Part shown: piece after piece, positions 1-29,961 of the stretch
How positions within the stretch are numbered: the stretch's first letter is position 1
How the letters are laid out: every line of letters begins with the position of its first letter
Assembly: GCA_002633005.1 (NCBI GenBank)
Contig: NMRA01001199.1
Location: forward strand, 1 to 36,809
Reading direction: 5' to 3'
DNA from: Phoronis australis
Lineage: Eukaryota > Animalia > Phoronida
DNA: 36,809 nucleotides
Notes under the pieces: generated by a model
What the model saw: only the letters and a program-made list of their open reading frames with translations
Told to the model about the DNA's origin: nothing
Databases searched by the model: none
Translations under genes and position numbers: made by a program

Positions 1-76
1 ACTGGCCTACATCATTGGGCCAATACAGAAGACATTTCAGGGCCAGTATTGGCCCAGTACCTGCATGTTTACTGGG
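1..76. mobile_element. Right end of a non-autonomous DNA transposon (CCCAGTAAACA-type terminus, EnSpm/CMC-like)
   Basis: Ends in TGTTTACTGGG, with internal palindromic GGGCCAGTATTGGCCC and related GGCC(C)A units; the other end lies outside the window. Confidence 0.4.
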
Positions 77-133
77 AAAGTAGTAGCGAGGTTTGAAGTC
101 TCCGATAAATCTTTGTAACATTAGTCAGCTATT

Positions 134-845
134 AGCGGATTTGCAGCGCAAACGAACTACGCACTGCGCATGTGCGAGTTACTTCCTGCGCGAAGGCTCA
201 TGGGATAGCTTGTGGTCAGGCATGTCTTGAGCAGGCTGGATAGTGTGTGCATTTGGAGTGATTTGCAAACTAAAAACCATGTTTCATTTTTTGCTTTATG
301 ATACCAAGCAAGCCCTCTCTCTCTCGTTTGTAAACACAGCGTAGCTATGATCAGTAACCGTGTGACCGAGGGCACGACTGTCGTCATGTTCAGTATTGGC
401 CGGGCTATCGGCGTTGATTTCGAAATCTCCTCCGGTTTCAGACAAGTTTATAGTTCTTGGGTTGCTTAAATTTTGTAGCTTTCGCCGTGGATATGCTAGA
501 GACGTTAATTTTAAGAGGAAACTCCGTCGGAATGTTGTTCTCATACGTCTTTTTTCCACTTTTCCACCAGGAAAATGCTCGCTGCACACACGATGGCCCC
601 TAGGCAATTACATCGCACTGGATGCCGCAGGCATTCAGGGGCGATAGTACATCCTCACAAAAAGTTGCTCGTTTCAAAATACAGCAAATAAAATCAAATG
701 AACCATACATATAGGAACACGGAGTTATAATTAACACATACCACGACTCTGGATACAATTTATTCAGCAAAACTTGAACAAATGAAATCGATGGAAATCT
801 GTCGCGGTTTGCTCGAGTCAAGTTCTCTCAGTTACCGGGTGCCAT
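134..845 (-). pseudogene. Degenerate THAP-domain coding remnant of a DNA transposon (possibly ISL2EU-like)
   Basis: ORF 296-607 contains HRVCSEHFPGGK (THAP C-x2-H-F core) and a downstream DHSY (HCF-1-binding motif type). The possible N-terminus (MAPGN*...FPSISF, from 845) is broken. AGCGGATTTGCAGC at 134-147 matches the MITE TIR at 6882 at 12/14 positions. Confidence 0.6.
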
Positions 846-1471
846 TTTGAGGAAGTTACGTGAAATTACGCATGTTGACGAATAAAAAGTCTAAGGGACA
901 CACATCTTACAAGTTTCACCCGATACCTTCTCATGCTATTTTACAAGTGTCACGCGCTAGCGTCACGCGCTTCGCTGAGTCTCGCGCTANTCTTTCATAG
1001 ACGCCTCGTTTCCAGAAGACTGGATTGAAAAGTTTCCTTTGAGCACAGTAAGGTGTGTGTTTGCATATAAGTCCGTTGAAACATTCCAAATTTCTTACAA
1101 GACTAGCTTATATCATTGGCAAACATTTCGCCTATTTAATCAGTCGGTTTTTGAATGCTTGCAAGTCCGTAATTCCATAGATTGCCAAGACAATTTTCGG
1201 AGGCATGCGCTCACATACAGTACTTGACGGGTGACAGATTTTGAGCCCTCCGGCATAACTAGGACTCCTACCCGCCACCCAACGCTAGTAGCCACATGCA
1301 GCCGCTGGCGCCTGTGCATTTTGGGAGTACACGTGCTTCCCCGGGTGTCCGGCAGCTTTCTGTGGCCTTGAATGTGTAATGTGAATGATCTACTGAATGC
1401 TGACGTGAATGAGGCTACTGTACGTGTTGATATTGGTGCGTGTGTGAATCTTCATCAACACGTCACTGCAG

Positions 1472-1574
1472 CTGCACAAGTACTTGATATCGAGTTGGCT
1501 AGAACACCAAAAGAGCGAAAAAGTGAAAAAACTCTTTGCGATTGCGGTTTGCCCAGGAATTTTGACCCTCTCGA
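1472..1574 (+). CDS. Candidate upstream exon of the alpha2-delta/CACHD1-like gene (5' boundary uncertain)
   Basis: Perfect GA|GTAAGT donor at 1575 in phase 2 fits the phase-2 acceptor at 2506. The join reads ...KTLCDCGLPRNFDPLEEFADQPCNLS, resembling the Cys-containing segment before VWA_N in CACHD1-like proteins. The acceptor cactgcag ending at 1471 is a guess. Confidence 0.4.
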
Positions 1575-2505
1575 GTAAGTGACAGTCCATCGTAGGTACA
1601 TGTATATCGAGTTTCACCACGTTTCACCGTAACCTTGAAATCACTTTCAGTGGTGGACATTTGCTAGCGCACGCTTACTCGTAAAAGATATCAATGTGCT
1701 ATGTTAGCGCCAAGCTTCCAAGATCTTATAGCTGAACTGAATGCACGAAGGATGAGCTTGCATTGATGAGTATTTCACTGTGTCTTTCTGGAGCGACAAA
1801 TAATGGCTACATTCATCGCTGAGTAGAGTGTGGACGGTTGTGTCTGAAATTCAACTGTACCTCAGTGTTTTTGTATATGCATATGTTATGAACTTTATAT
1901 ATGTCTGCATCTCAACACTGAGTACGATTTTGTTTTATGGGCAACAAGCCTCAAACAATACTCGACTCGTAACGTTTAAGTAACAAGAGTGATTCTTGGT
2001 CCTTCAATTTTCCATATTTCTTATTTTTTGAAAGTGTTCCTTTTTTCTTCGTGAATTCCGTGTTAATTTCTTCGCGAAAACTTCAGCCAGTCTATAAGAG
2101 GGCAGGTACAACTGAGGTGGTAGAGCAACAAACCTTTACTGGTACAGGCATCTTGTTCACATGTCAAAAGGCGTCCTGTCAAACGTCTTATGAGTAATTA
2201 GGGATATATCAATGAGTAAAAAGCTGATACCATGGCAAATCACGCACGAATAGAATTCAACCAAAATATATGTTATTAGATGATAACTTTCTCAAGGTAA
2301 GGTAGCCGACATGCCTTCTAGTCTGTGGCGAACAAAAAGGCTGAGCATGCGTCTGACAAGCGTTCACGGGTGTCACCAGACGCCTGAACAGCTTTCTGGT
2401 CGGACGACATGTGAACTCTGTGTTCGCACGAGACATGTTTCCATATCTTACAAAGCTTGGCAGGGGAATGAATCAAGCAGTGTATTGTAATCATGTCCTT
2501 TACAG

Positions 2506-2658
2506 AGAATTCGCCGATCAGCCGTGCAATCTCAGTATCGGTGCCATACAAGTGAAGAGCGAGGACAGGCAAAGTGCCGAGATTCGCAACTCCCTCCAGT
2601 GGCAGTCCAGGATCCATCGTATATTTACGCAGAATTTCCAAAAGGACGACAGCGTCAG
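2506..2658 (+). CDS. Exon encoding VWA_N region of an alpha2-delta (CACNA2D)/CACHD1-like protein
   Basis: Acceptor tcctttacag; 153 nt, phase 2-2. Encodes EFADQPCNLSIGAIQVKSEDRQSAEIRNSLQWQSRIHRIFTQNFQKDDSVR, matching the alpha2-delta pattern N..SAVHVP...NxLxW...xxF..N...D. Donor AG|GTCGCC is weak but joins in frame to WQYF at 13279. Confidence 0.75.
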
Positions 2659-4516
2659 GTCGCCGGAGATTTTTAGGCCTATGGGGGGAACTCGAAATTC
2701 ACTAGGTTTCGCAACTGAAGCAAAGAACATGGCATAAAAATACCTGCATTCAGGTAAATCACGTGGGACCCATATCACACGAATTGTATTCTGTTCTTAA
2801 TCTGTTCAGATGTCAAAAAGATAGACTTTTATTTATTAGCACCACCTAGTGAATATCGAGTCGTCCATGGCAACCATGTCATTTAGATTTTATTTGACGT
2901 CACAAATAATGTACAACTGAGGCCGGCCATGATAAGTCAGTGATAATGAATGGAATTTTGTTGATTCTGCCTGGTGTCTTCTATAATATGAGTCCACACT
3001 TTCGAGTTTATCCCCTGACACAGCACCACCTATACTGAAAAGTGGCCCTGTGGAAACATGATGAACGACTCACGGAATTCCGTGAGTGTAGACATTATGC
3101 GCATGCCTTGGTCGGAAGTATACCGATCACGTCGCCATGACTTGCACACGCCTTTTGTACATGTACACTGTACTTGTTTGGGCTTAAGCCACTTTATCGG
3201 GGCTCCCTTGATTTTTACTTCGATCACTGCCCGTTTCAAGTCAAAGCTAGGTGGTCGTAACATTAAGCTGAAGGGGGTTTCCCAGATTTCAACCAGTGGG
3301 AGTGACTGAACGTTATGACGTCGTTTTCATTACTTTATGCAATGTTAAACAACATTTAAAGCATTACTTCACCGGAATTTTGTTATTTTAGATGTATTGG
3401 ACTAACTAGGTACTCCTAGAAAAACCTTAGCAAAATAAGCAAATGCGAGTTTAATCACGCAAATGTAGGCCCGTCAAATGATAGGTGAAGCTGCCATTCG
3501 CGCCGTATTGCGTCACCGCGAGATCCCTGCACAAGCAACAAGAGGCCGATAAAAGTTGTATTGAATAGGGGTGTGAATTGAACACCATTGTGTGGGGTGT
3601 TATTCGCAGCTGTTTGAATTGAAATGTGAATTCTCGCGGAGACGTAGACAGAAGCAAGCCAGTTTGCCTAACAGTTCGTTACATTTGACAATTAATGGAA
3701 CTAGTGGGCTCAGAGGCAGTCCATCATTCGCGTACGAGGACAAGGTGATCCAAGCAAGTGGCACCAGTTTTGTGCAAAAAAGAATCTTACGCTGACACCT
3801 TCACCAATGGAGTTTCAGGAGCTCGACCCGGGATCTAGCATTAAAATCCGCCGCGATCTCCAAATAAACTGTACATGTACACGGCTTCAGCTGATGTTCT
3901 CATTCTCCGGATATTTAGTGAGGCGCGAAATTGACCATCACAAGCATGGCCGTAAACACTTGGGGTGAACTTTGAACTTTCATTTTAATGGTTGTAAATA
4001 GCATATTTCGATTGTTCCTGAAATGTACGCGTGGTATTTTGAAAAACGGACAAGACACGTGACTTTCATAGCCTAAAACTAGAAAGCAGTCCACAGCCAA
4101 TATTCTGCTCCCTTAATTCTATTGAGCGCGCAACATAATGGGCCAATTACGAAGAGTCATAAACCATCAATTGGAAATTGAGGAACGCCAATTGCAATTG
4201 TACAATTCTGGGCGTCATGTGCAATGCCAGAACATCTTTTTTACATCGGAACAGATTAAGGAGAATGTCACCCAAAAACAACCTAGTTTATAGATCGAGT
4301 AGTTCTACTCGATAACGGCACGTTCGGTTTCGTTACATGACACCTGACGGCAGACGGAGGTGTTGAAATTATCCAATGACGTCATTGGTTTCACACGCAG
4401 TCATCAGCAGTTCACAAAACGGGTTACTTTTTATGTTTATTACGAAATCTTCGATACAATGAATATACATAACCCAGAAAGCGCCAAGAGGCATTATATC
4501 TTGGTTAAAAGAGTAC

Positions 4517-4597
4517 CAAGAAATCTATATACAATTATTTTACACAAATACATAAAAAGAAATCTGTATACAATTATTTTACATAAATACATAAATT
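4517..4597. repeat. Two-copy tandem duplication (about 39 bp) in LINE 3' UTR
   Basis: AAGAAATCT(A/G)TATACAATTATTTTACA(C/T)AAATACATAAA occurs twice. Confidence 0.8.
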
Positions 4598-5153
4598 AAA
4601 AAAAACTGTTGTGAAGATAACAATGACATATGATTACGAAAGTAAATAAATCATTTTCATACACATGTATACAATTCTATCCACTCACACAAAGAGATTT
4701 AATATTATAAAAAAATTTTGATACTATTTCGAATAAAACCTTATTTTCATTTGGGTTGAGTTCTTGACTTCCATATAGAAAAAAATTAATTTTGTTGTAC
4801 ACTTGCGTAATTTCAAAATATTTTTATAAATATTGGGGTATTGTTCGAGTGTCTGGAAAAGCTGTACCCTCTGCTCCTTGCATACCTAACAAGCTAAGAG
4901 AACATGAGCATTTGTCTGTGCGTCTCCACAGCAACACAGAGGCGAAAAATTATTAAAATTATGTCTAAATTTCTCGTTGTTTAGGAATAGACCGCATTTT
5001 GATCTGTATAGCATTATTTCGTGGTTTGCGGGGAAGTAGGAACGATGTCAATGGGACTGGTAACTCTTGAGTAGCAGTATGCATTTTAAAGTTATTTTTA
5101 GAGTGACTATTGGAGTGCTTTCTTTAATTTTGGATTACTTTGCCGCAGTCCTG

Positions 5154-6536
5154 GGCCCGGTCTCCAATCTCCGTACTCAGACTCATACTCATACTCGAGA
5201 TTTCATACTCAAAATCGTGCTCAATGAAGTCGTACTCAAAAAAGCGTATCTAATGTCGGATTTCGAGTAGACTCCAAACGTACTCAAATCTGACACTCAT
5301 ACTCGAGTTGCTATGGAACTCTTTATGACGTGAAATGCAAAATCACGCAAAGCCGCGCTGATTCATCGCTTCCTATTGGAATAGACCACCCCAAGAACTA
5401 GGCCTACATTATCGTCTGCTGTCGCTACAACTACAAGAGTATGTCTATAACGTGGAATTTTGAGTGTTCTGTAACTGTTATTCATTTTTTAGTTTCAATA
5501 AATATTCTTATGTCATTTCTTTGATACATTTGGCAATTATTAAGCTTTACTTCTTGAGTTCCTCACCCAGTCCCGAAAATGTCTTAAGAAATATGTAACA
5601 GCTTATCACATCACATCTCTGTTGCTAATTTAGTCTTGACATAAAACCCATTGCTGTGTAGGCCTACGCTGATGTCAAACTTTGATACTATATCTTTGTA
5701 TTTTACCGGGATGTATCAAGTGAGTTGACATTTGGCACGTGAGTTAAAAAACAATACTTGTGCAGACATTCAGAGTTCACCAGTGGCAGTGAACGGGACG
5801 AGACGTCTACTTAGAAATCGGCAAAATCTGGAATTCCATTTGGGGATTGAGGAATTATAGATGACTAAGTTATGATGAGAAATGTACCTGACAGGAAAGC
5901 GAACTTTTTTAACTTCCCTCCCCTCCTCGTCTTTTGGAAACCCTACAAAACGTAGGCACACATACCGAAATAAGGGCAGCACAAACTTCTCACACGACTT
6001 TTCCCACAACTGCTTTCGACGCTTGTTACGACTCGCCGACAAGGGATTACAATGAGGCCTGTTGCCAGGAATTGTAGAAGTAGAATGGCTGCCGTAACAT
6101 ACAGTGATACGGCGGGTTAATAAGGTGAAGAATAAGAAGATTTAAGATGAAAACTATTATCTCTGAACTGAAATTGAAGTGCTGAGATACGGTAAGAGGA
6201 CTTATTTTTTTAGATTTGCTGTGTTTCTTGGTTCCCTTTCGATATTTTGTTCTCTGGCTCGTATTTATTTTCGAGTACGATTTCAAGCACACTGCCATAC
6301 CAAACTTGAAATTTGAGCATAGACTCCAAATTTTTACTCAAAATCGTACTCGAAATATAGATGAGATACACTTCAGTTCGAGTACACTCGAAAACTGAGT
6401 ACGTGCTCGAAATTTCGAGTACAGATTTTTCGAGTATGATATTGAATACACCAAAGCTGAGTCTGTACTCGAGTTGAGTATGAAGTGTGAGTTTGAGCAT
6501 GATTCGAGTCTGAGTACGGAGATTGGAGACCGGGCC
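5154..6536. mobile_element. Non-autonomous PIF/Harbinger-group element with CWG TSD, inserted in LINE copy 1
   Basis: Perfect 31-bp TIR GGCCCGGTCTCCAATCTCCGTACTCAGACTC (5154-5184, 6506-6536); CTG TSD at 5151-5153 and 6537-6539; subterminal TACTC/GAGTA repeats; the empty site is visible in LINE copy 2 near 34610. Confidence 0.93.
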
Positions 6537-6881
6537 CTGGTCTCGTGTTAGGTCTTTTGTAGGAGTCAAAGAGGATTTTGTTTGAGTTATTGTTAATGTT
6601 GGTTAAGACTTTGAATGTATACAGTACATGGACAAGTGGAGTTTACGACGGGTTGCTAGTTTGCTCCAGTTGAGACTGTTTAGGACCTTGATTGTGTTGG
6701 ATCCTTTGTATGCTCCTGTTATGGCTAAAGCTGCTTGGTATTGTAGTCTTTCTAATTGAAGAAGTATGCCAGCGTTTACTGATTGGTAGATTATGTCACA
6801 GTAATCTATATGTGGGAGAACAAAAGAGTTGAACAGAGTTTCAAGATGCTTGGAGTTGAGATAACGAGAGACAATTCTAAT

Positions 6882-7189
6882 AGCGGAGTTGCAACCGAAT
6901 CGATTCAACGATTGCGCATGTCCGGAAATTAGGGTGCGCAAAGGCTATTGGGATTGATTAGAGTATATGGAATGGCCGATTGGTTTGCACAACGTGTGAT
7001 TTGTGTGCATTAAAGGTATTAACAAAATTCTTTATCTCGCTAACTGGTATTATAGCAGCCAGGCACACAACACGTATAACCTCCCTGTTGCCGGTCCGCC
7101 CCCCACGCTTGTCGACGTACTTGTTTACCGGCTTAACCACAATGCAACATTCTGACCCATTTCCAATATGGCGGCGTTGCAACTCCGCT
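6882..7189. mobile_element. MITE with 2-bp AT TSD (ISL2EU-like), inserted in LINE copy 1 RT
   Basis: 14-bp TIR AGCGGAGTTGCAAC / GTTGCAACTCCGCT; AT at 6880-6881 and 7190-7191; empty site AATCCAATTAGAATT in copy 2 near 34280. Confidence 0.88.
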
Positions 7190-9531
7190 ATTGGATTGAT
7201 TAATTTTTGTACTTTGTGAACGAGTTCGCGACAGTGAGGAGTAAAGGTAAATTTGTGGTCTAATAGCAATCCAAGGTGTATGTGTGTGAACTTATTGGGA
7301 ATAACTACCCCATTGAGTGATAATTCCAGCATTGGATTTGTTTGGAATTGAGTATTATTAGACTTAAAAAATATAAGATCAACACTTTTTTCAGGTTTAA
7401 ATTTCATCTTCCATTTGCAAGACCAGTCATATAGTTTTATTAGATCAGTTTGCAATTGTAAGGAGTCATGGGGATTCTCTTTTGAGAATGGGTAAAAAAT
7501 TGCAATGTCATCATCATATAGGAATGTTTTAAAGTTTATTGTGTCTGGAAGACCATTGATGTGCAATAAAAAGAGTAAGGGGCCTAGTACGCTACCCTGT
7601 GGTACTCCAGCTTTTACGAAACCTGGCGTTGATGAGCGTGATAAAACACCCTCTATTCGGACTTTGTAAGTTCGACATTCCAGATATGATTTTAAAAGTG
7701 AGAAGAGAGTTCCGGAAAAACTGTAAGATTGTAATTTATGTAGAAGCAAATCATGGGGAACGACATCAAAAGCTGACGCAATGTCTAAGAATATGGATCT
7801 TACGTTGTATCCTTGCTCAAACTGGAGGTGGATTTCGTGTACAATTTCTGTAAGTTGGGACACAGTGCTCTTACCAGGCATGAATCCGAATTGGCGACGA
7901 TATATGAGGTTTTGTGAACTTAGAGAGGTGGTCAAACTTGTGTTGAGAAATTATTTTTTCTAAAATTTTGGATAGGGTGTTAAGTAGAGTTATGGGGCGA
8001 TAGTTGGCAATGTCTGTTTTGGAGTTCTTTTCGTGTATTGATATCATAACACCAAGTTTCCAGTTCAAAGGAAATTTTCTAGATTGTAGTATTTTGTTAT
8101 ATAATGTCAAGGGAGCTGTAAGCTCTCTTGCTATTATCTAAATCATTTTATTGGTTATGAGATTAGTGCCGTCTTTTTTGTTTTCTTCAATATTTTCTAG
8201 TAGTTTTCGCACTTCAGATGGTTGGGCTTGTATGTCAGAGAGGTGTTCTAATGTTCTGTGTGGGAATTCGGGAAAGCTTGTTGGTGCAACGTGACTCTTG
8301 GCGGTGAAGTATTCTAAAAACAACTTACTTTTTTCAGCTTTGGATGACGCCTGAGAGTTTGATTCCTTTGAGTGGATGGTGGGGTATGGAGATTGCTTTA
8401 CCTGTCCTAGAATTTTGTTTATTATATCCCAATATTCCTTTGAATTTTTGGAGACATTGTTTCATCTTATAGTCTTGTTTCGTCTTCTTAATTAGTTCTT
8501 CCAGACTTTTGTACTGTTCTTTGTAGCACTTGAACGTGCACGGGTTATTTGATTTTCTGAACGATCTGTACAGTTTGTTTCTTTTATTTATTTCAGTCTT
8601 AATGTTATTGTTAAACCACGGTTTGTTCTTGTTTTGTATTGTTTTCATGGTTGATGGGATATTATTATTATTTAGTATGTTGCAGAGTGATTGTGTGATT
8701 TCTGAGACTGTGTCATCTATGTCAGTTTTGCTCTGTATTTCAGTCCAGTTAAATGTGGTTATGTCAGTGCGCAGTTTGTCCATGTTAATGAGGTTGTAAT
8801 TCCAGATCTGTTTGATAACGCTGGTTCTTTAGGTAAGCAGTTGAGTGTGAATGTTGTTTCTATAACGTGGTGGTCCGAGTTACCAATGGGAGGCCTTACA
8901 GAAGTGGATCCGTAAGTAATACATAAATCAAGGCAAGAATGTGAATAATCTGTTAAACGTGTCGGTTCGTCTACTTAGTTGTACATAGTCATTTGAGAGG
9001 AGAATATCGAATAATTCGAGACCAGCTTGGTTGTCATTTTCTTCTGAGTACCAAGTACTATTTCTTGCGTTGAAATCCCCGTTGAGAACAATTGTTTTAT
9101 TAGTTCGTGAGAGTTCTGGTTGTTCTGCAAAGGTCTTGAAATATGCTTTCGTGTCATGGGACGTCTGGGAGGGTGAGCGATTGAAAAACCATAATATACC
9201 TTCTTGTGGTTGACATCAAGTTCAATCCAACTGTTATTCATTGATTGTATAATTTTAGTATCAATTGTTTTGTAATTTACTGAGTTGTGGACAAACAAGA
9301 TCAACCCCCTCCCGACGTTAGTGTGGTAGGCGATGCTGTATTCTGGAATAACAAGTGCCTTGAGGTTGTCTTCGGACAGCGTTCCGGATTCACATATGGC
9401 TATGACCATGTAATTGTTGTCTGTAATAAATTGCTTGAGAAGATCAAATCTTGAAAGATTGTCCGCCTTGATACTATTGATGTTAGTGAATAAGACCTTG
9501 AAGCCGGCTGAACCCTGAGTGTCTAGTCCTG

Positions 9532-9694
9532 GCGTGCGTTCAGTAGACGCTAGGACCTACGCTAGGACCTACGCTAGGATCTAGCTAAAACGTAGTCAAA
9601 GCCACGTGTTCTTATTTAAAATGCTCGGTCATATCTCACGTAGTCTCGCGAAGTCTTGCTTTTTAGTGAGGTCCTAGCGTTACTGAACGGGAGG
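9532..9694. mobile_element. 163-bp MITE with CTG TSD, inserted in the 2A motif of LINE copy 1
   Basis: Imperfect TIR (CGTTCAGTA-GACGCTAGGACCT versus AGGTCCTAGCGT-TACTGAACG); CTG at 9529-9531 and 9695-9697; three tandem ACGCTAGGA(C/T)CT units; absent from copy 2 at about 28131. Confidence 0.85.
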
Positions 9695-10230
9695 CTGGAT
9701 TGACCTCTATATCACCAGCAGTCAAAAGGGTTTGCTCAATATTATAACTCCGACATCACAACGTGAGTTCTTCATTGTGTATTAAACATCACGTAAGTGC
9801 GCATTTCGGGGTCGTTTTCCTCGTAGAAAAGTGAGGTCGAGTCTGATAGGCGAAAAGCAATGGGTTAATTTTGTATTCCAGACACCCGGACAATTGTAAT
9901 TATTGTGTGTGTAGTTAAAACCTAATAAATTCATACAGTTCATACTTAGCATGCTTATCTAACAACAGAAGAAAGAAATATATACAGGCGTGTGAATAGA
10001 CTAAAAGTAATCAAGTAAGGATAAAAGCAATGAACACTACGGTGTAAACACTAGAGTAGGCATGAACATTCCCACCACTACTGGTTTAATTACATTAACT
10101 TAGGCTAAATTTTGTAAATAGAAAACTGATGATTGAATAACATTAAAAAGTGAAGTTGATAGGCGTACTGCAGATGTGACATTAATAGAAATAGGTAAGA
10201 GCCAACGTGGTAGACAATTTGTACATATGT

Positions 10231-10333
10231 AGAGGGAGAGGGAGAGCGGGAGGGGGAGGGGGAGGGGGAGAGAGNGGCAAAAAAGACCAATTAAATCGGG
10301 TGGCATTCGCCTTTAGAGAGAGAGAGAGAGAGA
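10231..10333. repeat. Purine-rich simple repeats (GGGAGA/GGGGGA)n and (AG)n
   Basis: Directly visible; contains an N at 10275. Confidence 0.9.
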
Positions 10334-10830
10334 AAACGCTTTTATTTACATTACATTATAATAATACATTGATTAAAATTTGATTTCAATTAGGAGGCCT
10401 TCTAAAGGTTATTGACCGCTAATAAGAAGGTCCCCTGTACAACATAAAACAAATGGAAATGCAAAAATCAGTAGGAATACTTAAGAAAACAGTGAATTAG
10501 TGCTGAAAACGACCGACACGCCAGGAACCAAGAAGTAAAATGGCACAGATCAGGAGATTTTGAGAATACAATTAGATACTGTTACATATGAAGCAATTGG
10601 AAATATGAACTGGATCGTAATTGCTAATAATAAAATTGGTTAAGAACCTGGAGAATGCTTGCAAAGAATGCGTTTTTATTATATTTAGAGCAGAGACTGG
10701 TATTTCGTTGTTGTTCATAAGTCGAGGAATCTGAAATCTAATACAGGCTCTTGATGACAATTTGTTGGACCTAGGAATTAAAATTTTGGGTTGTCGGTAT
10801 AGCAGAACATGAATACTGTACTTTGGGATG
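10334..10830 (-). mobile_element. 3' fragment of a second LINE family (CR1/L2/Crack-like)
   Basis: ORF 10572-10760 ends IKTHSLQAFSRFL...Y...ISNCFIC, a C-terminus typical of invertebrate CR1-group ORF2; followed on the minus strand by AATAAA (10340-10345) and a (TC)n tail. Confidence 0.65.
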
Positions 10831-11854
10831 AAAGAAGATTGCCAATTACATTGGTATTATTGCACATGACGCCGCCCAAATCAAATAGGGCTCTAAGTCA
10901 ATACTACATGTATACTCGATTGGCCATTTTTAGCTTGAACGTCAATGGTAATTAAAGTTGAAACAACTTAAAAAGCGGGTTACTGGTGTCAGCTTATAGC
11001 TTGAATTCATCGTTCAACACCAATAAATCATTAAACTTCGATGTAAAACACTTAAAAATACACCGAGTTCTTATACAAACGTGTTGTTTTATTTTGCTGT
11101 TACTAATTTATTGGTATTTGGACACACCGTATTCTACAAAGTTCTGCAGGCCAATTTACCAAGGTCCGTAGCAGGAGTTTGGGGTCTGTTCGGAGATAAA
11201 TTCGAAGTATTCTTCTGTGAAACACAGACAGGAGAACCTAGATCTGAGAACATAGCTGTATATTGTCAATTTATACTTGTGATTTTTTGAGTTCTAAAGA
11301 CACAAAACGCTTGTTATCCCGGCCAGTTGCTCGGAAGCCGATCAGGCCTGTCGCGGCCGTCGGGTACGAACATAAAGCAGCTTGAGTTGGAAACTAAACC
11401 TTTGTTACGAAAAGACTATAATAGTGTGCCAAAGGAATAATGTTCGAGTAATTATTTATGTGAATTAGCCACGAAACTGAAAATCTACTTACTTGTCGGG
11501 GGCCGCGAAGTCGGGTTCCCCTTCCACACACCGTGAGGGCAAAGCTGTACAGTAACAATGATTTGAATAATGTATTTGTATATCCAAATAAAGATTCCCT
11601 AATATGTGACCATAGCATATAAAGTCGACTAATTGTTCCACAACGTCTTTCTGACGGCAAGCACTGATTTAGCATGCGCTCGCACGGCCTCGGTGCACGG
11701 TCAATTATCTTTACTGCCGGCATCAAAAGCCCGCCGGTAACGCAGTGGTTTATTCATTGCTGGCTTCTCAACATTTGCACTCACGAATACTGAAAAGGCA
11801 TTACAAATTGTATCTAATGAGGCAGACTTTGTTTCAGTTTTATATAACTTAGTG

Positions 11855-12116
11855 AACATGCACAGACAACGGAACGTATGGATATTTCTTTGGAAAGCCG
11901 GAATTTGTCAGAGAAATCACTGTCGACAAAATGCCGGCCACAGACACGGAGATGTTTCACGGCCTCATAGTTGCTATTAAGAGTGTGCCTTTCATTCTTC
12001 ACTACCGTGAGCCACTTCCTAAGAATTTCTGTCTCTCAAGGGAGTCAAAAAAACGATATACCCGCTTTCTTCGCTGCTTCATAGTTCAGACAAGCGGGAA
12101 AGATGCACTGCAATAT
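11855..12116 (-). pseudogene. THAP domain within Kolobok-like copy A
   Basis: One frame reads QCIFPACLNYEAAKKAGISFF*LP*ETEILRKWLTVVKNERHTLNSNYEAVKHLRVCGRHFVDSDF, giving C-x4-C, P, W and C-x2-H-F. The two TGA stops fit CGA decay; copy B has CGA at the second position. Confidence 0.88.
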
Positions 12117-13278
12117 AGCGGCTTTCACTCTGGAGACGAACCACTGACGTCGCTGCGTCGTTTCTCACCTTCCTCACAGGTTAACGCGACACCTCTCGGC
12201 AAGGTGAGGTCGACCGTGTAAGAGGGGATGTGGACATAGACCGATTAAAACGGTAAAAAGACTAATTAAAACGTTTGGCATTCTCCTTTAAAAGCAGTAT
12301 ACAGTTCGTGTGATAACGATCTCACGTTATTTACCCGGATGTTTGCTGTCTGTTGCTGTGAGATGAGATTTGAAGCAGGGTTCATCCCGTCTACCTTTAA
12401 CTGATTCTTAAGTGCATTGTTTGAGCAAGCAGCAAGCACAAAGGCCTTCGTTATTCCTCGCAATTTCTGCAAAGACGAATTTTCAATGAGTTCTTCATGG
12501 AGTGTACAAGACCGAGCACGGTCAATTTTTGTTGTCCCATCGGGTGAAGGCGTTCTCCGTTTGTTAGAGGACACACGTTTCCAGTGGTTGTAATTGGGCC
12601 AGGTTTTATCTCCAGCAAAATTAGCGTGTGACTTTTTAACGCGAGTCGATGGTGGGGCTGTGCTATACATACATGCAGAAAGTGGCTGTTGCCCGTCTGA
12701 AACATTGCCTTCCATTGGTCACGATGATGAAGTTTGTCGCTTGCTAGAACCATTTCAATGCATGAATTTTTGTCTTAGGGTGTTTTCGCTTTTCCAGTAG
12801 GTTTTCCAAGCTTATCAATATGCACCGAACTTACATAATATTTGAGTGGACAAGCTTGAATGATGATAAACAAGCTTGAACAAGAGGGCGCTTTTCATTG
12901 AAGTAGTATCTATGGGTGTGGGAGAGGTCGCATGCGGCTTTCGTTTTGAGTGTCCAAGTGGTGTTTCTGTATATTGTTTCTTATCTTCCTCTTTTCTATT
13001 GTTATGTGATTTAAGTTTACCAATACACTGTACATGTACATATTTCCTGTGCGTTTTCTCTTCCATTTCATGCCATTTACCTTAAATTGCTTAAAAATGT
13101 CTCACCGCTGGGGTTACCCCCATTACAATATGGTTGCATAGTCTACATTAGTTATCAGAATTTATTTTTCTTGCATCTTGCTGTGTTCTAATTTATCAAT
13201 TACTGAAGCTACGTTTGATGTATGATTTCGAGAGCTTTCCCGGAATGGATAAAGTTACCATACACTTTCATTCTGCAG

Positions 13279-13473
13279 GTGGCAATATTTCGCAGACAAA
13301 GAATCAACTGTTTTTACGCTGTGGCCCGCAACACCGCCTGATCGAAATCATATGGGTTTCCCCATTCACGACACTGATAAGCGCGAAAGACCCTGGTTCA
13401 TCAATTCTGTGAAGAAAGCGAAGGACATTGTCATTGTTCTGGACACAAGTACTTCAATGGGAAATTTTGGCAG
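13279..13473 (+). CDS. Exon encoding end of VWA_N and start of VWA domain of an alpha2-delta/CACHD1-like protein
   Basis: Acceptor tttcattctgcag, donor AG|GTAAGT; 195 nt, open, phase 2-2. Encodes WQYFADKESTVFTLWPAT...DKRERPWFINSVKKAKDIVIVLDTSTSMG, with family motifs WQYF, D.R.RPW, KD.VI..D and MIDAS DxSxS. Confidence 0.9.
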
Positions 13474-13521
13474 GTAAGTTAAAAATGAACAGCATGTTAT
13501 ACACATCGCATGAATAATGTT

Positions 13522-14378
13522 TATGCGGCCACATATTTATATGTGGTCGCATATTGCCGTCATCTCTGTCTGGGCGTCCGGCGTCCGCGGCTGTATCTCC
13601 TAAAGCCCTTGCAGGATCTTATTGAAATTTGGCAAGTGTGTTCCCATGGGGTTGACGACATAGGGCAACGAGTTTCGGACCGACCCGAATACCACTGTGC
13701 CCCCTAGTGGCAATTTATTTTTTTTACGTTTGCCTCTGTATCGTCAAAAGGACCTCAACCGGTTTTTCGTGAAATTTAGTACATAAGCATCTATTAATGA
13801 GTTGACGCTATCCTCTCGTTTTCGGATGGATTCGAGGCATTTTTCGCCATCTAGTGGCCATTTGTACTGTTTTTGAGTCGTTTTTGGCGTCCTCCCCTCC
13901 AGCAACCAAACCCGCTTTAAGGATGATTGTGAAAATTTGCACATAGGCCTATGTTCTTACTAGTATGAGGAAGACTGTTGACGATGATTTCCCGACGACT
14001 TCGACTACTGTGGCGCCTCCTCTAGTGGCAGTTTTGTTTGTTTTTGCGCCCATGATTGTATCTCCTAAACATTCTACAGGACCTTTATTATTAAATTTAG
14101 CAAATATATTTATATGAAGGTGAAAACGGACGGTGACGACTCTCGGACAGCTCGGTGTACCGGTGTGCACCCTAGTGGTAGTTTTAGCTTTTACGTTTAC
14201 CTCTGTATCTTCAAAGGTCCTCAACGGATTTCCATAAAATTTGGCACATAGACATTTATTTGTGAGATGACGCTATCTTCCGGTTTTTGGATGGATTCGT
14301 AGTTTGGGCCACCTAGTGGCCATTTTTGTTATTTTCGAGTCCGTTTTTGGCGTCCGCCCCTCTGTCATCCAAACCACC
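13522..14378 (+). mobile_element. DINE-1/HINE-like or CryptonV-like non-autonomous repeat, copy 1
   Basis: 5' hairpin TATGCGGCCACATAT-TT-ATATGTGGTCGCATA, GTCY-type repeats, internal unit of about 465 bp duplicated, repeated CTAGTGGC; inverted homolog at 21870-22408. Superfamily uncertain. Confidence 0.7.
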
Positions 14379-14381
14379 CTN

Positions 14382-14778
14382 AACTTAAGTTTTTAAAATT
14401 ACAAAAACTTAAGTTTTGTGATAAACTTAAGTTATCAGAAAAACTTAAGTTTTGTTAGTACAAAAAACTTAAGTTTTCACGAAAACTTAAGTTATTACTT
14501 GAAACTTAAGTTTATTTGTGAAAACTTAAGTTATACACTTGAAAAAACTTAAGTTTTCTGAAAAACTTAAGTTTTCTGAAAAACTTAACATTGTGCTGAA
14601 AAACTTAAGTTTTTGGCGAAAAACTTAAGTTTTAAAAACTTAAGTTTTGAAAACTTAAGTTTTAAAAACTTAAGTTTCTTTTAAAAACTTAAGTTTTTCG
14701 GAAGAACTGAAGTTTTTCCTCTAAAACTTAGGTTATTTTCCAAAAACTTAAGTTTTTTCGCCAAAAACTTAAGTTTTC
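14382..14778. repeat. Array of about 18-20 palindromic AACTTAAGTT units, probably a MITE arm
   Basis: Directly visible with spacing of about 15-24 bp; starts at the N at 14381 and abuts the THAP region of copy B. Confidence 0.9.
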
Positions 14779-14779
14779 A

Positions 14780-16257
14780 GCGAGAGCCCGAAATGCTTAG
14801 GAAGATGCTCGCGGTAGTGAAGAATGAAAGGTAGGCTGTTAATAGCAAGTATGATGCCGTGAAACATCTCCGTGTCTGTGGCCGGCATTTCGTCGACAGT
14901 GATTTCTCTGACGAATTCCGGCTCACCAAAGAACTAGCCATACGTTTCGTTGCCTGTGCGTGTTCACGTCACTTCTCAAGTATTCTTTGATCAGTGTAGT
15001 GCGGTTCGAACTGATAGCCTGTGAACAATAACGATCCGACCCGTGAAGTCTTCGTCGCTGAGCTCTTGACTAAGTTGGGAATCGCGCGGGGCGAGTTGCC
15101 ATGTAGACGTTTATTATTCTGCGTTCTGTTTCAAAATGAATTATTCTCATCATAGCCAATGCTTATATGAAATGGAAACAAAGTCTGCCTCATTAGATAC
15201 AGTTTGTGATGCCTTGGAGTGCTCGTGAGTGCAAATGTTTTGAGAAGCCAGCAATGAATAAACCACTGCGTTACCGGCTTTTGATGCCGGCAACAAAGGT
15301 AATTGACCGGGCACCGAGGCCGTGTAAGCTCATACTAATTCAGTGTTTGCCGACAAAAAGCTGTTGTGAAACAATTACTCGATTTTATATGCTATGGTCA
15401 CATGCTAGGGGAATTTTTATTTAAAAATACAAATACATTATTCAAATCATTGTTACTGTACAACCTTTGCCCTGACTGTCTGTGGAAGGGAAACCCGACA
15501 TCGCGGCCCCAACAAGTAAGTACATTTTCAGTTTCGTGGCTAATTCACATAAATAATTACGTACACAATTATTTCTTTGGCTCAATATTATAATGTTTTC
15601 GTCACTGGAGGTTTAGTTTCCTACTCAAGCTGGTTTATGTTCTTATGTTCGTGCCACTCCCCGGTGGCCGCGACGCCGGGCCTGATCGGGTTACGAGCCA
15701 CTGCCATCTGGGATAACGAGTACAGTCCGGCCGCGACGGGCCTGATCGGGTTCCGAGCCACTGGCCGAGATAACAAGCGTTTTGTGTGTTTAGAACTCTA
15801 AAAATCACAAGTAGAACAACACAGATCTAGGTTCTCATGTCTGTATTTCGCGGAAGAATATTTCGAATTTATCTCCGAACAGACCCCGAACTCCCCAGTT
15901 CTACGGACCTTGGTAAATTGGCTTGCCAAACTTTGCAGGCTACGGTGTGTCCAAATACCAGTAAATCCGTAACAGCGAAATAAAACAACACGTTTTTATA
16001 AGAGTTCGGTGTATTTTTAAGGGGGGTACATCGAAGTTTGATGATTTATTGGAGTTAAACGATGAACTCAAGCGATAAGCTGTAACCCGTGTTGTGAACT
16101 GCTGAACATACTGCGTGTGAAACCAATTATGTCATTGGGAAATTTCAACACCGTCTGCCGTGAGGCGTCAGGTAACGCAACGGAACGTGCCGTTGTCGAG
16201 TAGAACTACTCGATCTAAATTGATACAAAATAGGTTGTTTTTGGGTGGCATTCTCCT
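14780..16257 (+). mobile_element. Kolobok-like element copy B (one end missing), with partial THAP
   Basis: Encodes EMLRKMLAVVKNER...KHLRVCGRHFVDSDF; ends TGGCATTCTCCT at 16246-16257; inverted homolog of 4259-4428 and 10985-12030. Confidence 0.85.
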
Positions 16258-17066
16258 TTTATAAGGCCAGTTTTCAAAAGCTTGGCTCCCCCATTCCCCG
16301 TACTAGCTGATTTTGGGAGAAAAACAACATTTTCACTTGTAGATTATTTTTTCTTAGTATGATGGTTCCGTCTACTTATTTTTCTAACAATCCCTATTTT
16401 ACGTGTTCAACTTCATAGACCAATTGGCGCAAATCAAATCAAACTCTAAAAATCGAGCCATTGGTGAGTTAATGACATGAAACAATCACTGCTTTGTTGC
16501 TGTGTTTAAGATGAATCTCAAGAGAACTGTCTTTTACACTCGCGACTCGCAGCGCCGTATGATTAAAGCGACACTTGCTGCCTCGCGAATTAGCATTGTA
16601 CCGATCGAGAGGCAGGCTTTTTCTCAACTCTGACAGATTTAGGCACAACTTTAGAAATGTCTCATTGCAAATACTGTGACCAAATGATTTCTTCAAGTGT
16701 GTCCTCGACGAATGCAAGAGGAACTCGCTCTTTCGACCACTCAATGAAAACCAGCTAGTTGTGAATACTCTCAATTCCTGCAATAATACCTCTACTAAAG
16801 TTACATTGTTCTTAACACCTTGGACATATGCCTATATGATGCAGAAACGTTTTCACTCATTCTACACATCGCTGGCCGCTTGGGGGGACTCTGCGTTGCA
16901 TTTAAGTGCATGCCTTAGGCTGTTTTCGTCCACTAGGTATGCTTTTTATACGTAAAGCGTTATCAATCAATTGACAGCTTTCAATTAGCAAGTTCCCACT
17001 CACACTCATAGGGGATTTTGCCCTGCTGGGTCACATATTTACTATACATTTACTTATATTTATTAG

Positions 17067-17189
17067 ACCCACAATCATCTGACAAGGAAGGAAGGCTATT
17101 TTACAGCTATCAACCCAGATATATCTTTCCTGAGCCAATTAAAGTGGTCCAGTGTCCAATACAACAACCAGCCCTCATTCTGCCCGTCG
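17067..17189 (+). CDS. Candidate linker exon upstream of the DED
   Basis: Acceptor ttatatttattag; 123 nt open, phase 1-1 (PQSSDKEGRLFYSYQPRYIFPEPIKVVQCPIQQPALILPV); weak G|GTGTGC donor is phase-compatible with 17360. No recognised homology. Confidence 0.5.
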
Positions 17190-17359
17190 GTGTGCGCTTT
17201 GATGCTTCGTCCGTACTTCTGACTCTAAATCGGATTAGCTGGTCCCAAAGCTGTAGTGCGAAATTGCTACATTTATGTCTTCTAGCTTGAGACCATGTGC
17301 AAACTAGCATAAAATATTTATCATTACTGTTAACTATAAGTATGTCAATTTATTCTCAG

Positions 17360-17471
17360 GAAACAGGTATTCGGTGGCCGAACTTCATTACGAGCTGTTA
17401 ATGAAGGTTTCTGATAGTATCACTGACAGGGATTTTTCCATACTAAAGATAATGTGCAAACAATGGATAAG
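17360..17471 (+). CDS. Exon encoding N-terminal half of a death effector domain
   Basis: Acceptor tttattctcag, donor AG|GTAAGA; encodes NRYSVAELHYELLMKVSDSITDRDFSILKIMCKQWIR (DED helices 1-2 pattern LL..I...L...D...LK..C). Confidence 0.85.
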
Positions 17472-18292
17472 GTAAGAAAATCAACATCGCATGTTTATGA
17501 ATGCATGCACTGCTACGACGTCACTTTAAACGGTTACTGTATGCTGAGTGCTATTTTAGTCAGTCAAGAACAGCACATTTTAGTAAAATGTGTATGTAGC
17601 GGTTGATTAACTCAAACGCCCAAGAGCTCCATAATTTCATCACAGAATGAACACCGGAAAACAAGAAGTGTCAATTTGACTTTTTTCACGCTTCGTTGTT
17701 GTCAGAGACGTAAAAATATATCAGTCTCCGTTCGGTGAAACATGTCTTAAACAAGTAGTCTAATTAACATCAGAGTTTCCAATACAGCTTCATGTTTCAA
17801 CGAGGAGATCTTTTCGAGATTAATAATTGCGAAAATCAAACGCACATGCTACTTTTGGCGCTACCTATTGTCGAATGTGTACATATGTAAGTTGTGTGTT
17901 GGCTGACTGGGTTAAGCAAAGCAACGAGCATTGAAGACAGCCATCAGGATATCTTACATTTTTGTGCCTGTTGTTGTCGTGTCTTTTTTAATTAAATCCG
18001 TTATTTTTCCTCTAATATTCCAATTTTTAAGTAATTTTGATTGGGGCATCAAGTGTAGCTCAAATATTTTCCAGCTGTCGATGATGAAACAGTTCTATTA
18101 TACAAGTCAGTTATCTATTGGTAAGTACTTATCTGTGAAGGTGAATAATTAAGGTTTACGGCTGAATATGGCGGGCGAGTAGAATATGAGCTTTTGAGGG
18201 GTGATTTGATAATCATGCGGCCTGGCTATGTATGCATGTGCTCACGGATTCTTCAACAGTAAATGGACTGATTGTAAATGTCTTGTTTTCAG

Positions 18293-18563
18293 GCCAGCAA
18301 TACTAGAAGGTATAAGAGACACTCGTGAACTTCTTCAAAAACTCGAGGAGCAAGGGATTATTAGATTTGGGGAGTACAGCAATCTAATAGACGTGCTGGA
18401 CCAGCTCAAACTGGGGGCTCTTAAGAATGAAGTGGAAAGACGGTCACGTGAAATAAATGCACTAGGAATAGGAGCTGGTAATGTTGACCTTTCACCTTTA
18501 AAAAGTCCTTCAACATTGCATGAACTTCTGAACTCTCCATTTTCAAATCAAACTGGAGACTAG
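18293..18563 (+). CDS. Exon encoding C-terminal half of a death effector domain (terminal, or ending at a GTAATG donor near 18478)
   Basis: Acceptor cttgttttcag is phase-compatible with 17471; encodes PAILEGIRDTRELLQKLEEQGIIRFGEYSNLIDVLDQLKLGALKNEV (LE.I....ELF..LE.QG.I.....L..L pattern); stop at 18561-18563. Confidence 0.85.
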
Positions 18564-18710
18564 GGAAAATTTTAACAGTCATTTATGGGTCCTGATTAAC
18601 TGCAATTGTTGTAAAAAATCATCTTTATTTCGGACGAAAATGTCTACAATGATTTCTGACAGTGTATATTGTATTTTTGAAAGTTCACAATTCGGCCACA
18701 TTAGCCATAA

Positions 18711-19756
18711 CAGCCGATTTCAAAAAGGTGGTTTAAAGTAAACCTGGTTGAAACTAGACTTAGACCAGCTTTAAAGATAATCTACTTTTCATAAAGGTGA
18801 TTTTACGTTTGGACTAATGGTCTCGTAAAACCTGGTAACATTAGTTTTGGTCAGACCCATCTTTAGAACGGTTAAATAGGTAAGACTTGAATTATATAGG
18901 TGCAACTGAATACTGCAGCAATATGCATTCACGACGCAGTTTTAGAGCGAAAATGGACTATTTTCAATATTCAGTTTTCATCGACACAAGATCAAACGTA
19001 GCAGGGGCAGATCCATGATTTTTTTACGGGGGAGGATCGGTCAAGGTTTTTTTAAAAGAGGGGACCAAGCCAACAATTTGAAAATTATGCATTTGGTATC
19101 ACTAATCTCAAGGGGAAAAGGGTGGTCCGACCTCCTTGATCTATCCCCTTGGATTCGACTGTGTGTAAACCACCAAGTGGTTCCTTGAATTCCTCATAAT
19201 ACGATTAGTCGATTAGGGCGTCATGGTCGTAAGCGCTATGGGTTTTCACTGAAGACATCATCTTCCGATTTTTCTGACTGAGTTCCACCTCCACTGGTCC
19301 CCGATTTAATGTTGCCAGGAAGGGGTCTTGCCCCCCTTTGGCCGCTAATAATTATACTCTAATATGCCACGGAAATAAATTTGGCCATTTATCATGTTGC
19401 GGCTTATCGTGAGAAAGTACTTTGATGTGTCTACATGTATTAGTCACAAACATCACATTTGTTCGCCTGAGAAAAGCTTTTAGACCTTTGTCCCAAATGT
19501 CTGCATTCATTCTATTAGTGTGTCATTTTATACCCATGTGATCAATGTTCGTCAACAGTTTCTTTGTTGGGTTAAACTGGATCAACACAGTGGCACTGTT
19601 TTACTAAACCAGCTCCCTGGTCAAACAAAACCAGGCTTTCAGACTTTTAAACCAACTTGAGGAAAAGCAAGTTAGGTCTAAAATTAGACTAGGTTTAGGA
19701 AGACCAAATTTAAGTCTTAAACCTGTTTTTTTAAACCGCGTTCATGAAATCGACTG
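18711..19756. mobile_element. PIF/Harbinger-like MITE with TAA TSD
   Basis: Imperfect TIR CAGCCGATTTCAAAAAGGTGGTTTAAA versus TTTAAACCGCGTTCATGAAATCGACTG; TAA at 18708-18710 and 19757-19759. Confidence 0.8.
19002..19163. mobile_element. Small decayed hAT-like MITE nested in the Harbinger MITE
   Basis: CAGGGGCAGATCCA ... TGGATTCGACTGTG resembles CAGGGGCGGATCC-type TIRs; no clear TSD. Confidence 0.45.
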
Positions 19757-19949
19757 TAAGGATTCAATTTCTGCATAATTTAGACGAACTTGGACAGCTA
19801 GAAAAAGGCAGGATACCTTTTGCCTAGCCTACCATGAGCCAGAAGGCAGACACCATATTCTCTAGCTTTAATAATTCTGATCTGTCATTCTTTTCCTCTG
19901 TTCGTCAGTTTTGCTATGTTTTCTATTCACATTATGTATTTACATTCTC

Positions 19950-20255
19950 CCCTTGCGAAACGTACCTCTGTTAACCATGCTTAACCATGGCTGTACAACC
20001 ATGATTACCATGGCTGAAGAATTTCGTGATAAGTTGAAACCATGGTTGACTATGCTTCACAATCACGGTTATCAACCGTGGTTAACCGTGGCTAAAAACC
20101 ATGGTTGACCATGGTTACCAACCATTGTGTGGAACCATGATTGACTACGGTCAAGACGGTTGACCAGTTAATAATCATGATTGCCCATGGCTAAAAATCA
20201 TGGTTGGGACCATGGTTACTAATCATGGTTGATCATGGTTACTAACCATGGTAAA
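19950..20255. repeat. AACCATGGTT palindromic repeat array, probable EnSpm/CMC-like MITE arm
   Basis: Many (A)ACCATGG(TT) variants following CCCTTGCGAAA; matching terminus not found. Confidence 0.7.
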
Positions 20256-21869
20256 CAATTGTTTGGCATCGAATTTGTTCAGCAATGTTTAGTAAGTATG
20301 GTCAACAACGGTGACGAAGTCATGCTCATGAACTGACAATTACATGGATATGGCTAATAGTCCACTATAAATTGAAATACACCACGTAAGCAAATTACCA
20401 GCTCAGTTTCAAGTGAAATGTCTCAAGCTCATCAATTCAGCAAGGTCTAACTCACTAAAGGGTCCTAATTCGCTACTTAACTTAAAACGTCGAAAACAAG
20501 TGTTTTGTACTCTACATAATACTTCTATTTCTTCATTTACAACTGGACAATAGAAACTACAAGAACAATTGACTCTTTGAATGTTAAATAGCACATTAAA
20601 ATGTATTAGAACAAATCTAAACTTGAAAAATGCAAGATTTTGTAAAATACATGGCACCAACAGTTTTCTGCTTTCACACTGAGCATCATCACCAAGAACC
20701 AAAACTTACAATGTGTAAAACAATTCAATATTTGAATTGACATTTCCCAAAATATTTCTCATCTATATTACTTTATCTTGAAGTATGTTTTACCTAGCGT
20801 GTAAAGTACTCTATAAATACGACGAAGTGTTCCTATTCACATGTACAAAACTATAAGTGGTCCGTCTTATCTATGCTTGAAGGGTATTCATATTTTAACT
20901 TTTGCTCGAGCCTTAGCAGTTATGTCTTTTGGTCCAGGCGAAAATCGTCTTTCATCTCAGAGCAAAAAGTCCATACAATACATCCGCACACTTGGCTTTT
21001 GATGAGATGTGTTAAGAGGCATTGGGGTATAAAGAGCTGCAGCAGCAAAATATTGGCTGCCAGAAAAGCAGAATTCACATGTGACTCCAAAACCTTAAAT
21101 GCAGGCCATTCACGGTCTAATCAGCACTCGAGGTCCACCGAATTTTTAGAATACACACTTGTCACTCCTCATTATCTTTTGGCCACCACAGGAATTGAGG
21201 ACTGCCACATTGGTGTTGGTGGTTGTCTGTCAAGTACTTTCACTCGCCATCTGAGTTTCATTTCATCATGCATGTTTTCGAAGTCTTCCGTATTAAAGAA
21301 AAGTTGAAATTTTTCCAGTTAGAAGAGATCAAGTAAATCAATAGGATTTTTCATCCATTTTTGTTCAGAAAATACAGAAAATTAATGCTTTGATTTCTTA
21401 GTTAATCAACCATAACATAAATGTAGAACCGCGCTTTGGACAAAATAAAGACGTGATCTCACGGCTTGGAAAGTATTGAGAATTTGTAAAATAGTTGTTT
21501 CAGACTTGGCTCGCAAAATAGATTTCTAGACATATCATTTTAATCACAGAGCGACTAGTCGTGAGTTAGCAGATTTGTGCAAGACCAAAAATCACTTCTA
21601 TTCTCATCCAAGTTGATTAAATAAATTGAGACCAATTTTAAGGTGGAACTTTTTGAAAATACAATATTCTTTCTTCAAGGGAACACAAGTTCTTTAATGC
21701 GTTAAAGAAATATGACCCCCACATCAAGTTTTTGCAAAGACTAAACATCTATTTTTCAAAACCCATTAGAAACACCGGACAATTTGGTTGATAAAAAAAG
21801 GTTTTGAAATCAAAATAATTTAGGCCTCTGTTTAAATCACAGAATTACACAAACTCTAGCACTGCAAAC

Positions 21870-29626: not shown

Positions 29627-29770
29627 TGTTTATGGTACTAGATCAGCTGTTCCTTTGCGCATGCACAGTCGTCTTGTAATACCCATCTTAGTTAATAAAC
29701 AGTGATCTTACTCACTCTCTGAAAGTCCCTGTTATACCCAACAATCGGCCGTGCGAAACCGATTGTTTTA
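29627..29770 (+). repeat. 5' LTR
   Basis: Direct repeat of 33829-33972; ends TTTA rather than TACA. Confidence 0.95.
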
Positions 29771-29789
29771 TGGTGGCAGCGGTGGAATT
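29771..29789 (+). promoter_or_regulatory. Primer binding site, tRNA-Leu
   Basis: TGGTGGCAGCGGTGG(A)AT is complementary to the 3' end of tRNA-Leu (…CCACCGCTGCCACCA). Confidence 0.88.
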
Positions 29790-29961
29790 GGCCCAGGACC
29801 GGTTTGATGCAACTTGTTGGTGAGTTTTGAACTGAAACCTACCCAACCTAAGCGATTCCTATCTCATCTAGTTCGGGCTCCGTCACTGTGACTGTGCCTC
29901 GCATATTGTCCGATAGAGCTCGCTACCGGACACTATCGTTTACACAGCGCATTTGACAATC

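Follow-up and report, generated by a model that had tools for sequence, protein, structure and literature searches.

A Cache-VWA gene piece and a death-effector-domain-like gene piece facing one assembly gap in Phoronis australis, possibly two ends of one receptor gene

Receptors of the Fas type signal through a death domain and depend on FADD, and death effector domains (DEDs) usually stand N-terminally in FADD, caspase-8 and DED-NACHT proteins. Shortcut death receptors, for example a TNFR-caspase, are expressed in amphioxus (portions of PMC2575513), and streptophyte dCache-VWA Ser/Thr kinases couple a Cache-VWA ectodomain to a signalling domain (portions of PMC8915833). The same N-terminal module, a Cache domain with an inserted VWA domain, is found in the calcium-channel partners alpha2-delta-1 to -4 and CACHD1, and in one of two gene pieces that we describe here from the phoronid Phoronis australis (assembly GCA_002633005.1, contig NMRA01001199.1, positions 1 to 36,809 of the forward strand; this whole stretch of 36,809 nucleotides (nt) is hereafter called the window). 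The 5' piece encodes VWA_N and the start of a VWA domain, the 3' piece ends in a DED-like domain, and a single N at 14381 lies between them. We propose that both are ends of one type-I receptor gene whose middle exons lie in the 14381 gap, a proposal whose chances we put at even; the probabilities given for this and the other readings are judgements, not computed values.

Two open-ended gene pieces and the gap between them

The gap and the exons of the two pieces are as follows.

1409-1574, plus strand: probable first coding exon, its start at ATG 1409 signal-peptide-like, with a frame break in a GT-rich run and the donor GTAAGT after 1574 (phase 2)
2506-2658, plus strand: exon for the middle of VWA_N (first distal module of dCache_1), phase 2/2, by Pfam and family hidden Markov model (HMM)
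13279-13473, plus strand: exon for the end of VWA_N and the first VWA strand with DxSxS, phase 2/2, by PDB and library matches and family HMM
14381, no strand: single N, assembly gap of unknown size between a cut repeat on the left and a satellite on the right, where missing exons would have to lie
16419-16463, plus strand: candidate extra exon of 45 nt, phase 1/1, suggested by a good acceptor, a GTGAGT donor and an open frame, in frame with 17067
17067-17189, plus strand: probable proline-rich linker exon, phase 1/1, with a T-rich acceptor, an open frame and a phase that fits 17360
17360-17471, plus strand: exon for the first part of the DED-like domain, phase 1/2, with strong splice sites
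18293-18563, plus strand: last coding exon, with the rest of the DED-like domain (Pfam), a tail of ~35 residues and the stop, phase 2/stop; AATAAA at 19374

The VWA exons reported in a first-pass annotation of this DNA are real and lie on the same strand: exons 2506-2658 and 13279-13473 splice in frame with the donor at 1574, giving 149 residues with no stop. Exon 2506-2658 aligned with positions 58-107 of 128 of Pfam VWA_N (E 7.3e-4, under the curated cut-off) and with the family HMM (E 0.008), gave no match among PDB sequences and has a weak donor at 2658 (5/9 consensus letters). Exon 13279-13473 has strong splice sites, matches the family HMM at E 2e-16 and alpha2-delta-1 in the PDB at E 0.013, and had no Pfam match when scanned alone. 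Against 1.84 billion representatives it returned 20 proteins at E<=0.001 (best E 4.5e-6); 19 are Cache-VWA-type proteins or fragments of one exon each, and the remaining one is an unrelated DUF11 protein. Several of the single-exon matches share both end points of exon 13279-13473. The Atlas search with this exon gave only VWA_N/VWA clusters (<=0.81), a word-based protein search (8 candidates) gave no match at E 0.001, and metagenome scans with each VWA and DED exon found no relative. The first element of the metal-ion-dependent adhesion site (MIDAS) is intact, as had been reported (DTSTS, that is DxSxS, in exon 13279-13473), and is the only MIDAS element within the window. No further family exon was found in the window, either by tblastn with 97 relatives as queries or with a 50-sequence HMM against 1,645 six-frame segments, and the VWA piece therefore also runs into the 14381 gap. 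The rest of the VWA domain and a membrane segment had already been noted as not visible, and we likewise found neither a further family exon in the window nor a hydrophobic helix in the visible 3' piece.

On the other side of the gap, exons 17067-17189, 17360-17471 and 18293-18563 splice in frame to give 168 residues, which place the DED-like domain C-terminally behind a proline-rich linker. The last exon matches positions 33-81 of 82 of Pfam DED (PF01335) at E 0.0074, and exon 17360-17471 supplies DED positions 1-32 by length and phase, to make a full domain of ~80 residues; judged from these sequence matches, the C-terminal domain is likely a DED. Exon 17360-17471 alone had no Pfam or PDB match, a PDB sequence search with both DED exons gave no death-fold match, and a word-based protein search with the DED exon (253 candidates) gave no match at E 0.001. 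In the ESM Atlas the last exon fell among DED/Death clusters at 0.82-0.86, a match that serves as a lead only because two bacterial clusters without a name rank above it and its own recognition value is under threshold; a single-sequence fold model of this exon reached a pTM (predicted template modelling score) of 0.48, with no Foldseek match at E 0.001. DEDs carry an RxDL motif in helix 6, where many of them vary, and RxDL is not at the expected place in the translated 3' piece. The linker exon 17067-17189 has a weak donor at 17189 (5/9 consensus letters) and showed no family match or homology support, and exon 16419-16463 showed no homology and no RNA reads. Candidates for a start exon (ATG) in 16260-17066, a stretch with repeat-like reads, are only weak, and the DED piece thus probably reaches back into the 14381 gap.

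The window is animal DNA dense in repeats, with single Ns at 990, 10275 and 14381. Around the last of these lie:

13520-14380, no strand: interspersed repeat truncated at the N (self-BLAST), with an inverted copy at ~21871-22409
14382-14780, no strand: AT-rich satellite of 18-20-nt units (TRF, Tandem Repeats Finder)
14782-16258, plus strand: THAP-type transposon copy, its 5' part replaced by satellite (self-BLAST; motif read by eye)

Other units of the left-hand repeat extend beyond the point where the N cuts the 13520-14380 copy, and the N at 14381 marks a genuine gap with a cut repeat on each side. The N at 990 also cuts a repeat, and 121 and 116 RNA reads of that repeat continue into sequence absent from the window (RNA came from 18-19% of each of three raw runs and from one contig set, all under the same species label, and was placed on 14800-20000 and 1-4250). 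Cut repeats at 14381 and read overhangs at 990 together indicate that single Ns here stand for missing DNA of unknown length. At 10275 the two sides are joined in the right order and strand, since consecutive exons 2 and 3 and the halves of one THAP copy flank the N, and this makes the local scaffolding credible. That the N at 14381 instead joins unrelated contigs, so that the neighbourhood is an assembly artefact, would agree with the repeats on both sides of it, where mis-joins are common, but the validation of the 10275 join by exon order and the split THAP copy speaks against it, as do the shared strand of the two pieces and their open ends toward the gap, and we regard it as improbable.

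Start of the gene and divergence of the VWA piece

Position 1472 had been read as an acceptor, opening an internal exon 1472-1574; we could not confirm this reading, and a signal-like ATG that lies 63 nt further upstream suggests a frame-broken first coding exon. The ATG at 1409 opens M-R and a hydrophobic run and meets a stop in its own frame at 1445-1447, the VWA_N frame near 1445 reads a polar stretch ending in V-T-A that resembles a signal-peptide cleavage region, and the two frames cross in the GT-rich run at ~1435-1446. It is the only one of 1383 ATGs on both strands that satisfies a simple signal-peptide rule, a rarity that is overstated because the rule was set after the sequence had been inspected. 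Because this ATG is out of frame with VWA_N, 1472 is probably no acceptor and the copy is probably broken; on the simplest reading, 1409-1574 would be a first coding exon with a small indel, which could reflect a null allele, a pseudogene or a slip in the assembly. It could also be that a 32-nt GT-AG intron spans 1440-1471, that translation begins at an in-frame ATG at 1372 and lacks a signal peptide, or that 1472 is a true acceptor whose upstream exons lie elsewhere. The last residues of exon 1409-1574 align with relatives (MAFFT), and the family HMM gave no match to this exon. Counted from ATG 1409, the VWA domain begins at about residue 155, whereas in 60 long relatives the median start is residue 251 (~95 residues fewer here), and two stalk helices would thus be lost, which may not hold if 1472 is a true acceptor. 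The apparent frame break near 1437 is a new observation, absent from the first-pass annotation.

A profile built from exon 13279-13473 and ten short relatives listed 110 proteins, led by conserved proteins of ~1,180 residues from many invertebrate phyla and protists; in 60 long relatives a median of 926 residues follows the VWA start. In the examples read, these long relatives have the amino-acid motif twice, from which we infer that they belong to the 'double AA-motif' dCache_1-VWA group (as described in portions of PMC8915833). Common to them and the VWA piece is an N-(F/H)-x-G-F signature before the R-x-W motif, a reading of our own alignment that has no published definition. The identity of exon 13279-13473 to 46 relatives has a median of 43% and a maximum of 48%; among themselves the relatives are 81% identical. 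Within the amino-acid motif YxxxxRxWY, the VWA piece keeps R and W, the first Y has become T and the last Y has become F, and these changes make classic amino-acid binding doubtful. In a tree of 42 rows (five chosen rows were removed by a motif filter, and the bootstrap had not settled) its branch measured 4.01 changes per column against a median of 0.66, and it fell in no supported group. Judged by this long unplaced branch, the VWA piece appears to be a fast-evolving paralogue and not an alpha2-delta or CACHD1 orthologue. The earlier description as alpha2-delta/CACHD1-like therefore holds for the order VWA_N then VWA with DxSxS and for the PDB match, and probably not for orthology.

Among the relatives themselves, a PF03024 folate-receptor domain occurs on a branch of the double-motif Cache-VWA family (P0006, where it is N-terminal, P0055, P0085, P0095, P0102 and P0121), and this branch spans a choanoflagellate, a sponge, nemerteans, Lingula and Owenia. 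The double-motif protein P0071 (Owenia) has ~350 extra C-terminal residues without a Pfam match and may be a mis-joined gene model.

One gene or two across the gap

Were the two pieces joined, the predicted product would be a receptor that crosses the membrane once, bearing a signal peptide and an extracellular Cache-VWA sensor of reduced length and, at the end of its intracellular tail, a probable DED. A ligand or surface would bind the metal-dependent VWA site or the altered Cache pocket, bound receptors would cluster, and the clustered DED would recruit a DED-bearing caspase-8/FADD-type partner directly, without the death-domain adaptor step of Fas. The 5' piece begins with a secretion-like sequence but lacks an end, while the 3' piece closes with a C-terminal death-fold domain but lacks a start; both lie on the plus strand with their open ends facing the gap. 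Such complementary open ends favour one gene, one gene needs less missing DNA than two, and a remodelled, fast-evolving ectodomain would fit a recruited receptor. The streptophyte Cache-VWA kinases and the expressed amphioxus shortcut receptors serve as precedents on the same side. The single VWA-DED gene that had been proposed earlier comes out as the slightly better of two near-equal readings, with a join that is observed neither in reads nor in relatives.

Several results weigh against a single gene. The exon phases differ as had been pointed out (phase 2 at the 13473 end, phase 1 at the 17067 and 17360 starts), and at least ~150 VWA residues and a membrane helix, on several exons, must sit in one gap. 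A phase 2-to-1 bridging exon within 13474-17066 was sought, and the candidates lie in repeats, none of them convincing. The visible 3' exons hold no membrane helix (best 19-residue hydropathy 0.88). The last exon alone scores 16.9 bits against the curated DED cut-off of 35.9; of the earlier DED call, the in-frame splicing of 17360-17471 and 18293-18563 stands, and so does the Pfam match, at a level below cut-off. The profile scan of single exon peptides thus gave matches to VWA_N and DED that are both below Pfam curated cut-offs. No death-fold family was found in the 20 scanned matches or in the precomputed domains of the 110 listed relatives (three of these 110 rows list no domains, and the two sets overlap), nor in eight unusual relatives that were rescanned, and the spliced DED had no match in 151 fetched proteins (best E 1.1). 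The relatives fetched are conserved, distant parents and no close relative was found, which makes the death-fold negative a weak test. Most long relatives end GPI-like (glycosylphosphatidylinositol), without a tail, the most hydrophobic stretch lying <=13 residues from the C-terminus in 52 of 60 (36 of 60 under stricter criteria); some more distant relatives (P0011, P0126, P0135 and P0140) have a membrane helix followed by a short tail. The first motif Y, which is Y or F in 46/46 relatives, and the P of D-P-R, present in 44/46 and K in the VWA piece, are lost in a way that fits decay, and the copy seen here probably carries the frame break near 1437. A decaying fragment would account equally well for the frame break, the lost motif residues and the repeats that fill the locus.

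The RNA data speak neither for nor against the join, since exon 13279-13473 lies outside the mapped regions and no region spanned both pieces. A joint between gene exons was found neither in 1-4250 nor in 14800-20000, mapped separately. The last DED exon drew about one read in each of the three runs (first mate on the minus strand in 3/3), and a few reads fell in the bin 2415-2556, near exon 2506-2658, in 2/3 runs; none lay on the first exon or the exons at 16419, 17067 and 17360 (three partial runs and the contig set). Depth was zero over 16888-18279 and 1137-2272, where low depth was not counted as a finding.

The same evidence can be read as two separate things: a truncated or decaying double-Cache-VWA duplicate, or a GPI-anchored paralogue continuing in a large gap, next to a second, unrelated gene that ends in a C-terminal DED and has its 5' exons in the gap. 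In favour of this are the relatives of ~1,180 residues with mostly GPI-like ends and no listed death fold, the frame break at ~1437, the missing motif Y and P, the phase mismatch and the heavy transposon load. However, one gap must then hold a 3' end (or a deletion) as well as a 5' end and promoter on the same strand, the three VWA exons lack internal stops and have kept their splice sites and DxSxS, and the N-terminus is remodelled, not merely cut. We think the chances of this reading fall somewhat short of even.

A direct splice from 13473 to 18293, both phase 2, would yield a short chimera of a VWA stub and two-thirds of a DED. No other join within the window is in frame, and the few reads of the 3' piece are all on the last exon; but neither domain could fold, and the DED is completed by exon 17360, whose splice sites are strong, which makes this outcome very improbable. 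Returning to the single receptor gene, a further claim, that an intact working receptor exists in the species (as alleles or paralogues), a Cache-VWA duplicate turned DED death receptor of which the assembly copy is broken or mis-read, seems to us rather unlikely.

If the join is true, a calcium-channel-partner module that binds amino acids or gabapentinoids would have taken on a new role as sensor in a receptor for cell death or immunity, in parallel with the streptophyte Cache-VWA kinases, and would signal via a DED without the usual death-domain adaptor. If it is false, the locus would hold an invertebrate death-fold gene of the ordinary kind and, next to it, a Cache-VWA paralogue that evolves fast and is probably broken.

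Other parts of the window hold further repeats and relics. The THAP copy at 14782-16258 is 83-89% identical to 4258-4427 plus 10982-12037, inverted, and draws many divergent RNA reads on both strands; the piece scanned had no Pfam match, and the THAP label rests on the motif. The second THAP-type DNA transposon copy, 4258-4427 plus 10982-12330 (minus strand), is split by a 6.5-kb nested insertion spanning N10275. At 1-989, cut at N990, and at ~2680-3830 lie abundant repeats, to which divergent RNA reads again map in large numbers on both strands; a promoter-like motif pair near 166-190 was discarded because 1-989 is a genomic repeat. A decayed long interspersed nuclear element (LINE)-type element is present in two inverted copies, 4552-10038 (minus) and 26953-35960 (plus), 85-89% alike, with a reverse transcriptase match at 6961-7950 and an ORF1-like coiled-coil relic at 25942-26514 (by eye). 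Inside a LINE copy sits a long terminal repeat (LTR) retrotransposon, 29627-33969, Ty3/Gypsy-like by domain order, with 141-nt direct repeats 96% alike, protease, reverse transcriptase and RNase H matches in 30493-32670 and several in-frame stops. One frame at 20900-21350 (minus) resembles decayed coding sequence with scattered stops, and two segments of it have no Pfam match; a degenerate tandem array at 19970-20270 has ~23-nt units rich in CCATGG.

Comparison with known Cache-VWA and death-fold systems

The first-pass annotation did not recognise the architecture, and this agrees with our finding no description of a VWA/Cache receptor with a DED or death domain in our searches of the open-access literature; among the papers listed there, none held both PF08399 and PF01335. 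The PMC8915833 supplements, in the parts covered, contain no DED/Death term; the eukaryote table rows seen there list no architectures, which makes this blank uninformative.

The double AA-motif dCache_1-VWA proteins (Gumerov et al. 2022, portions of PMC8915833), for example Salpingoeca PTSG_05636, share with the VWA piece VWA_N followed by VWA with DxSxS, and proteins of Ptychodera, Lingula and Branchiostoma annotated 'alpha-2/delta-2-like' are examples of such relatives. In contrast to that group, the VWA piece is without strong cross-phylum conservation, has a shorter N-terminus and has lost the first motif Y. The motif of the dCache_1AA amino-acid sensors (YxxxxRxWY, then Y...D after VWA; portions of PMC8915833) is not present in it as such, the half behind the VWA lying outside the window. 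Unlike in alpha2-delta and CACHD1, which have two nested dCache_1 domains in ~1,100 residues, a second Cache and VGCC_alpha2 regions were not seen in the window. Single dCache_1-VWA membrane proteins share the short Cache-VWA ectodomain, and P0011 and P0140, single-Cache-VWA proteins with a membrane helix and tail, offer a precedent; the VWA piece shows no tree affinity to the single-Cache rows. Compared with the streptophyte kinases, the output here would be a DED. The likeness to Fas/TNFR and to the amphioxus shortcut receptors lies in the predicted topology of ectodomain, membrane helix and C-terminal death-fold module, whereas, in contrast to Fas-type receptors, the death-fold module here is DED-like and the membrane helix is predicted beyond the visible exons.

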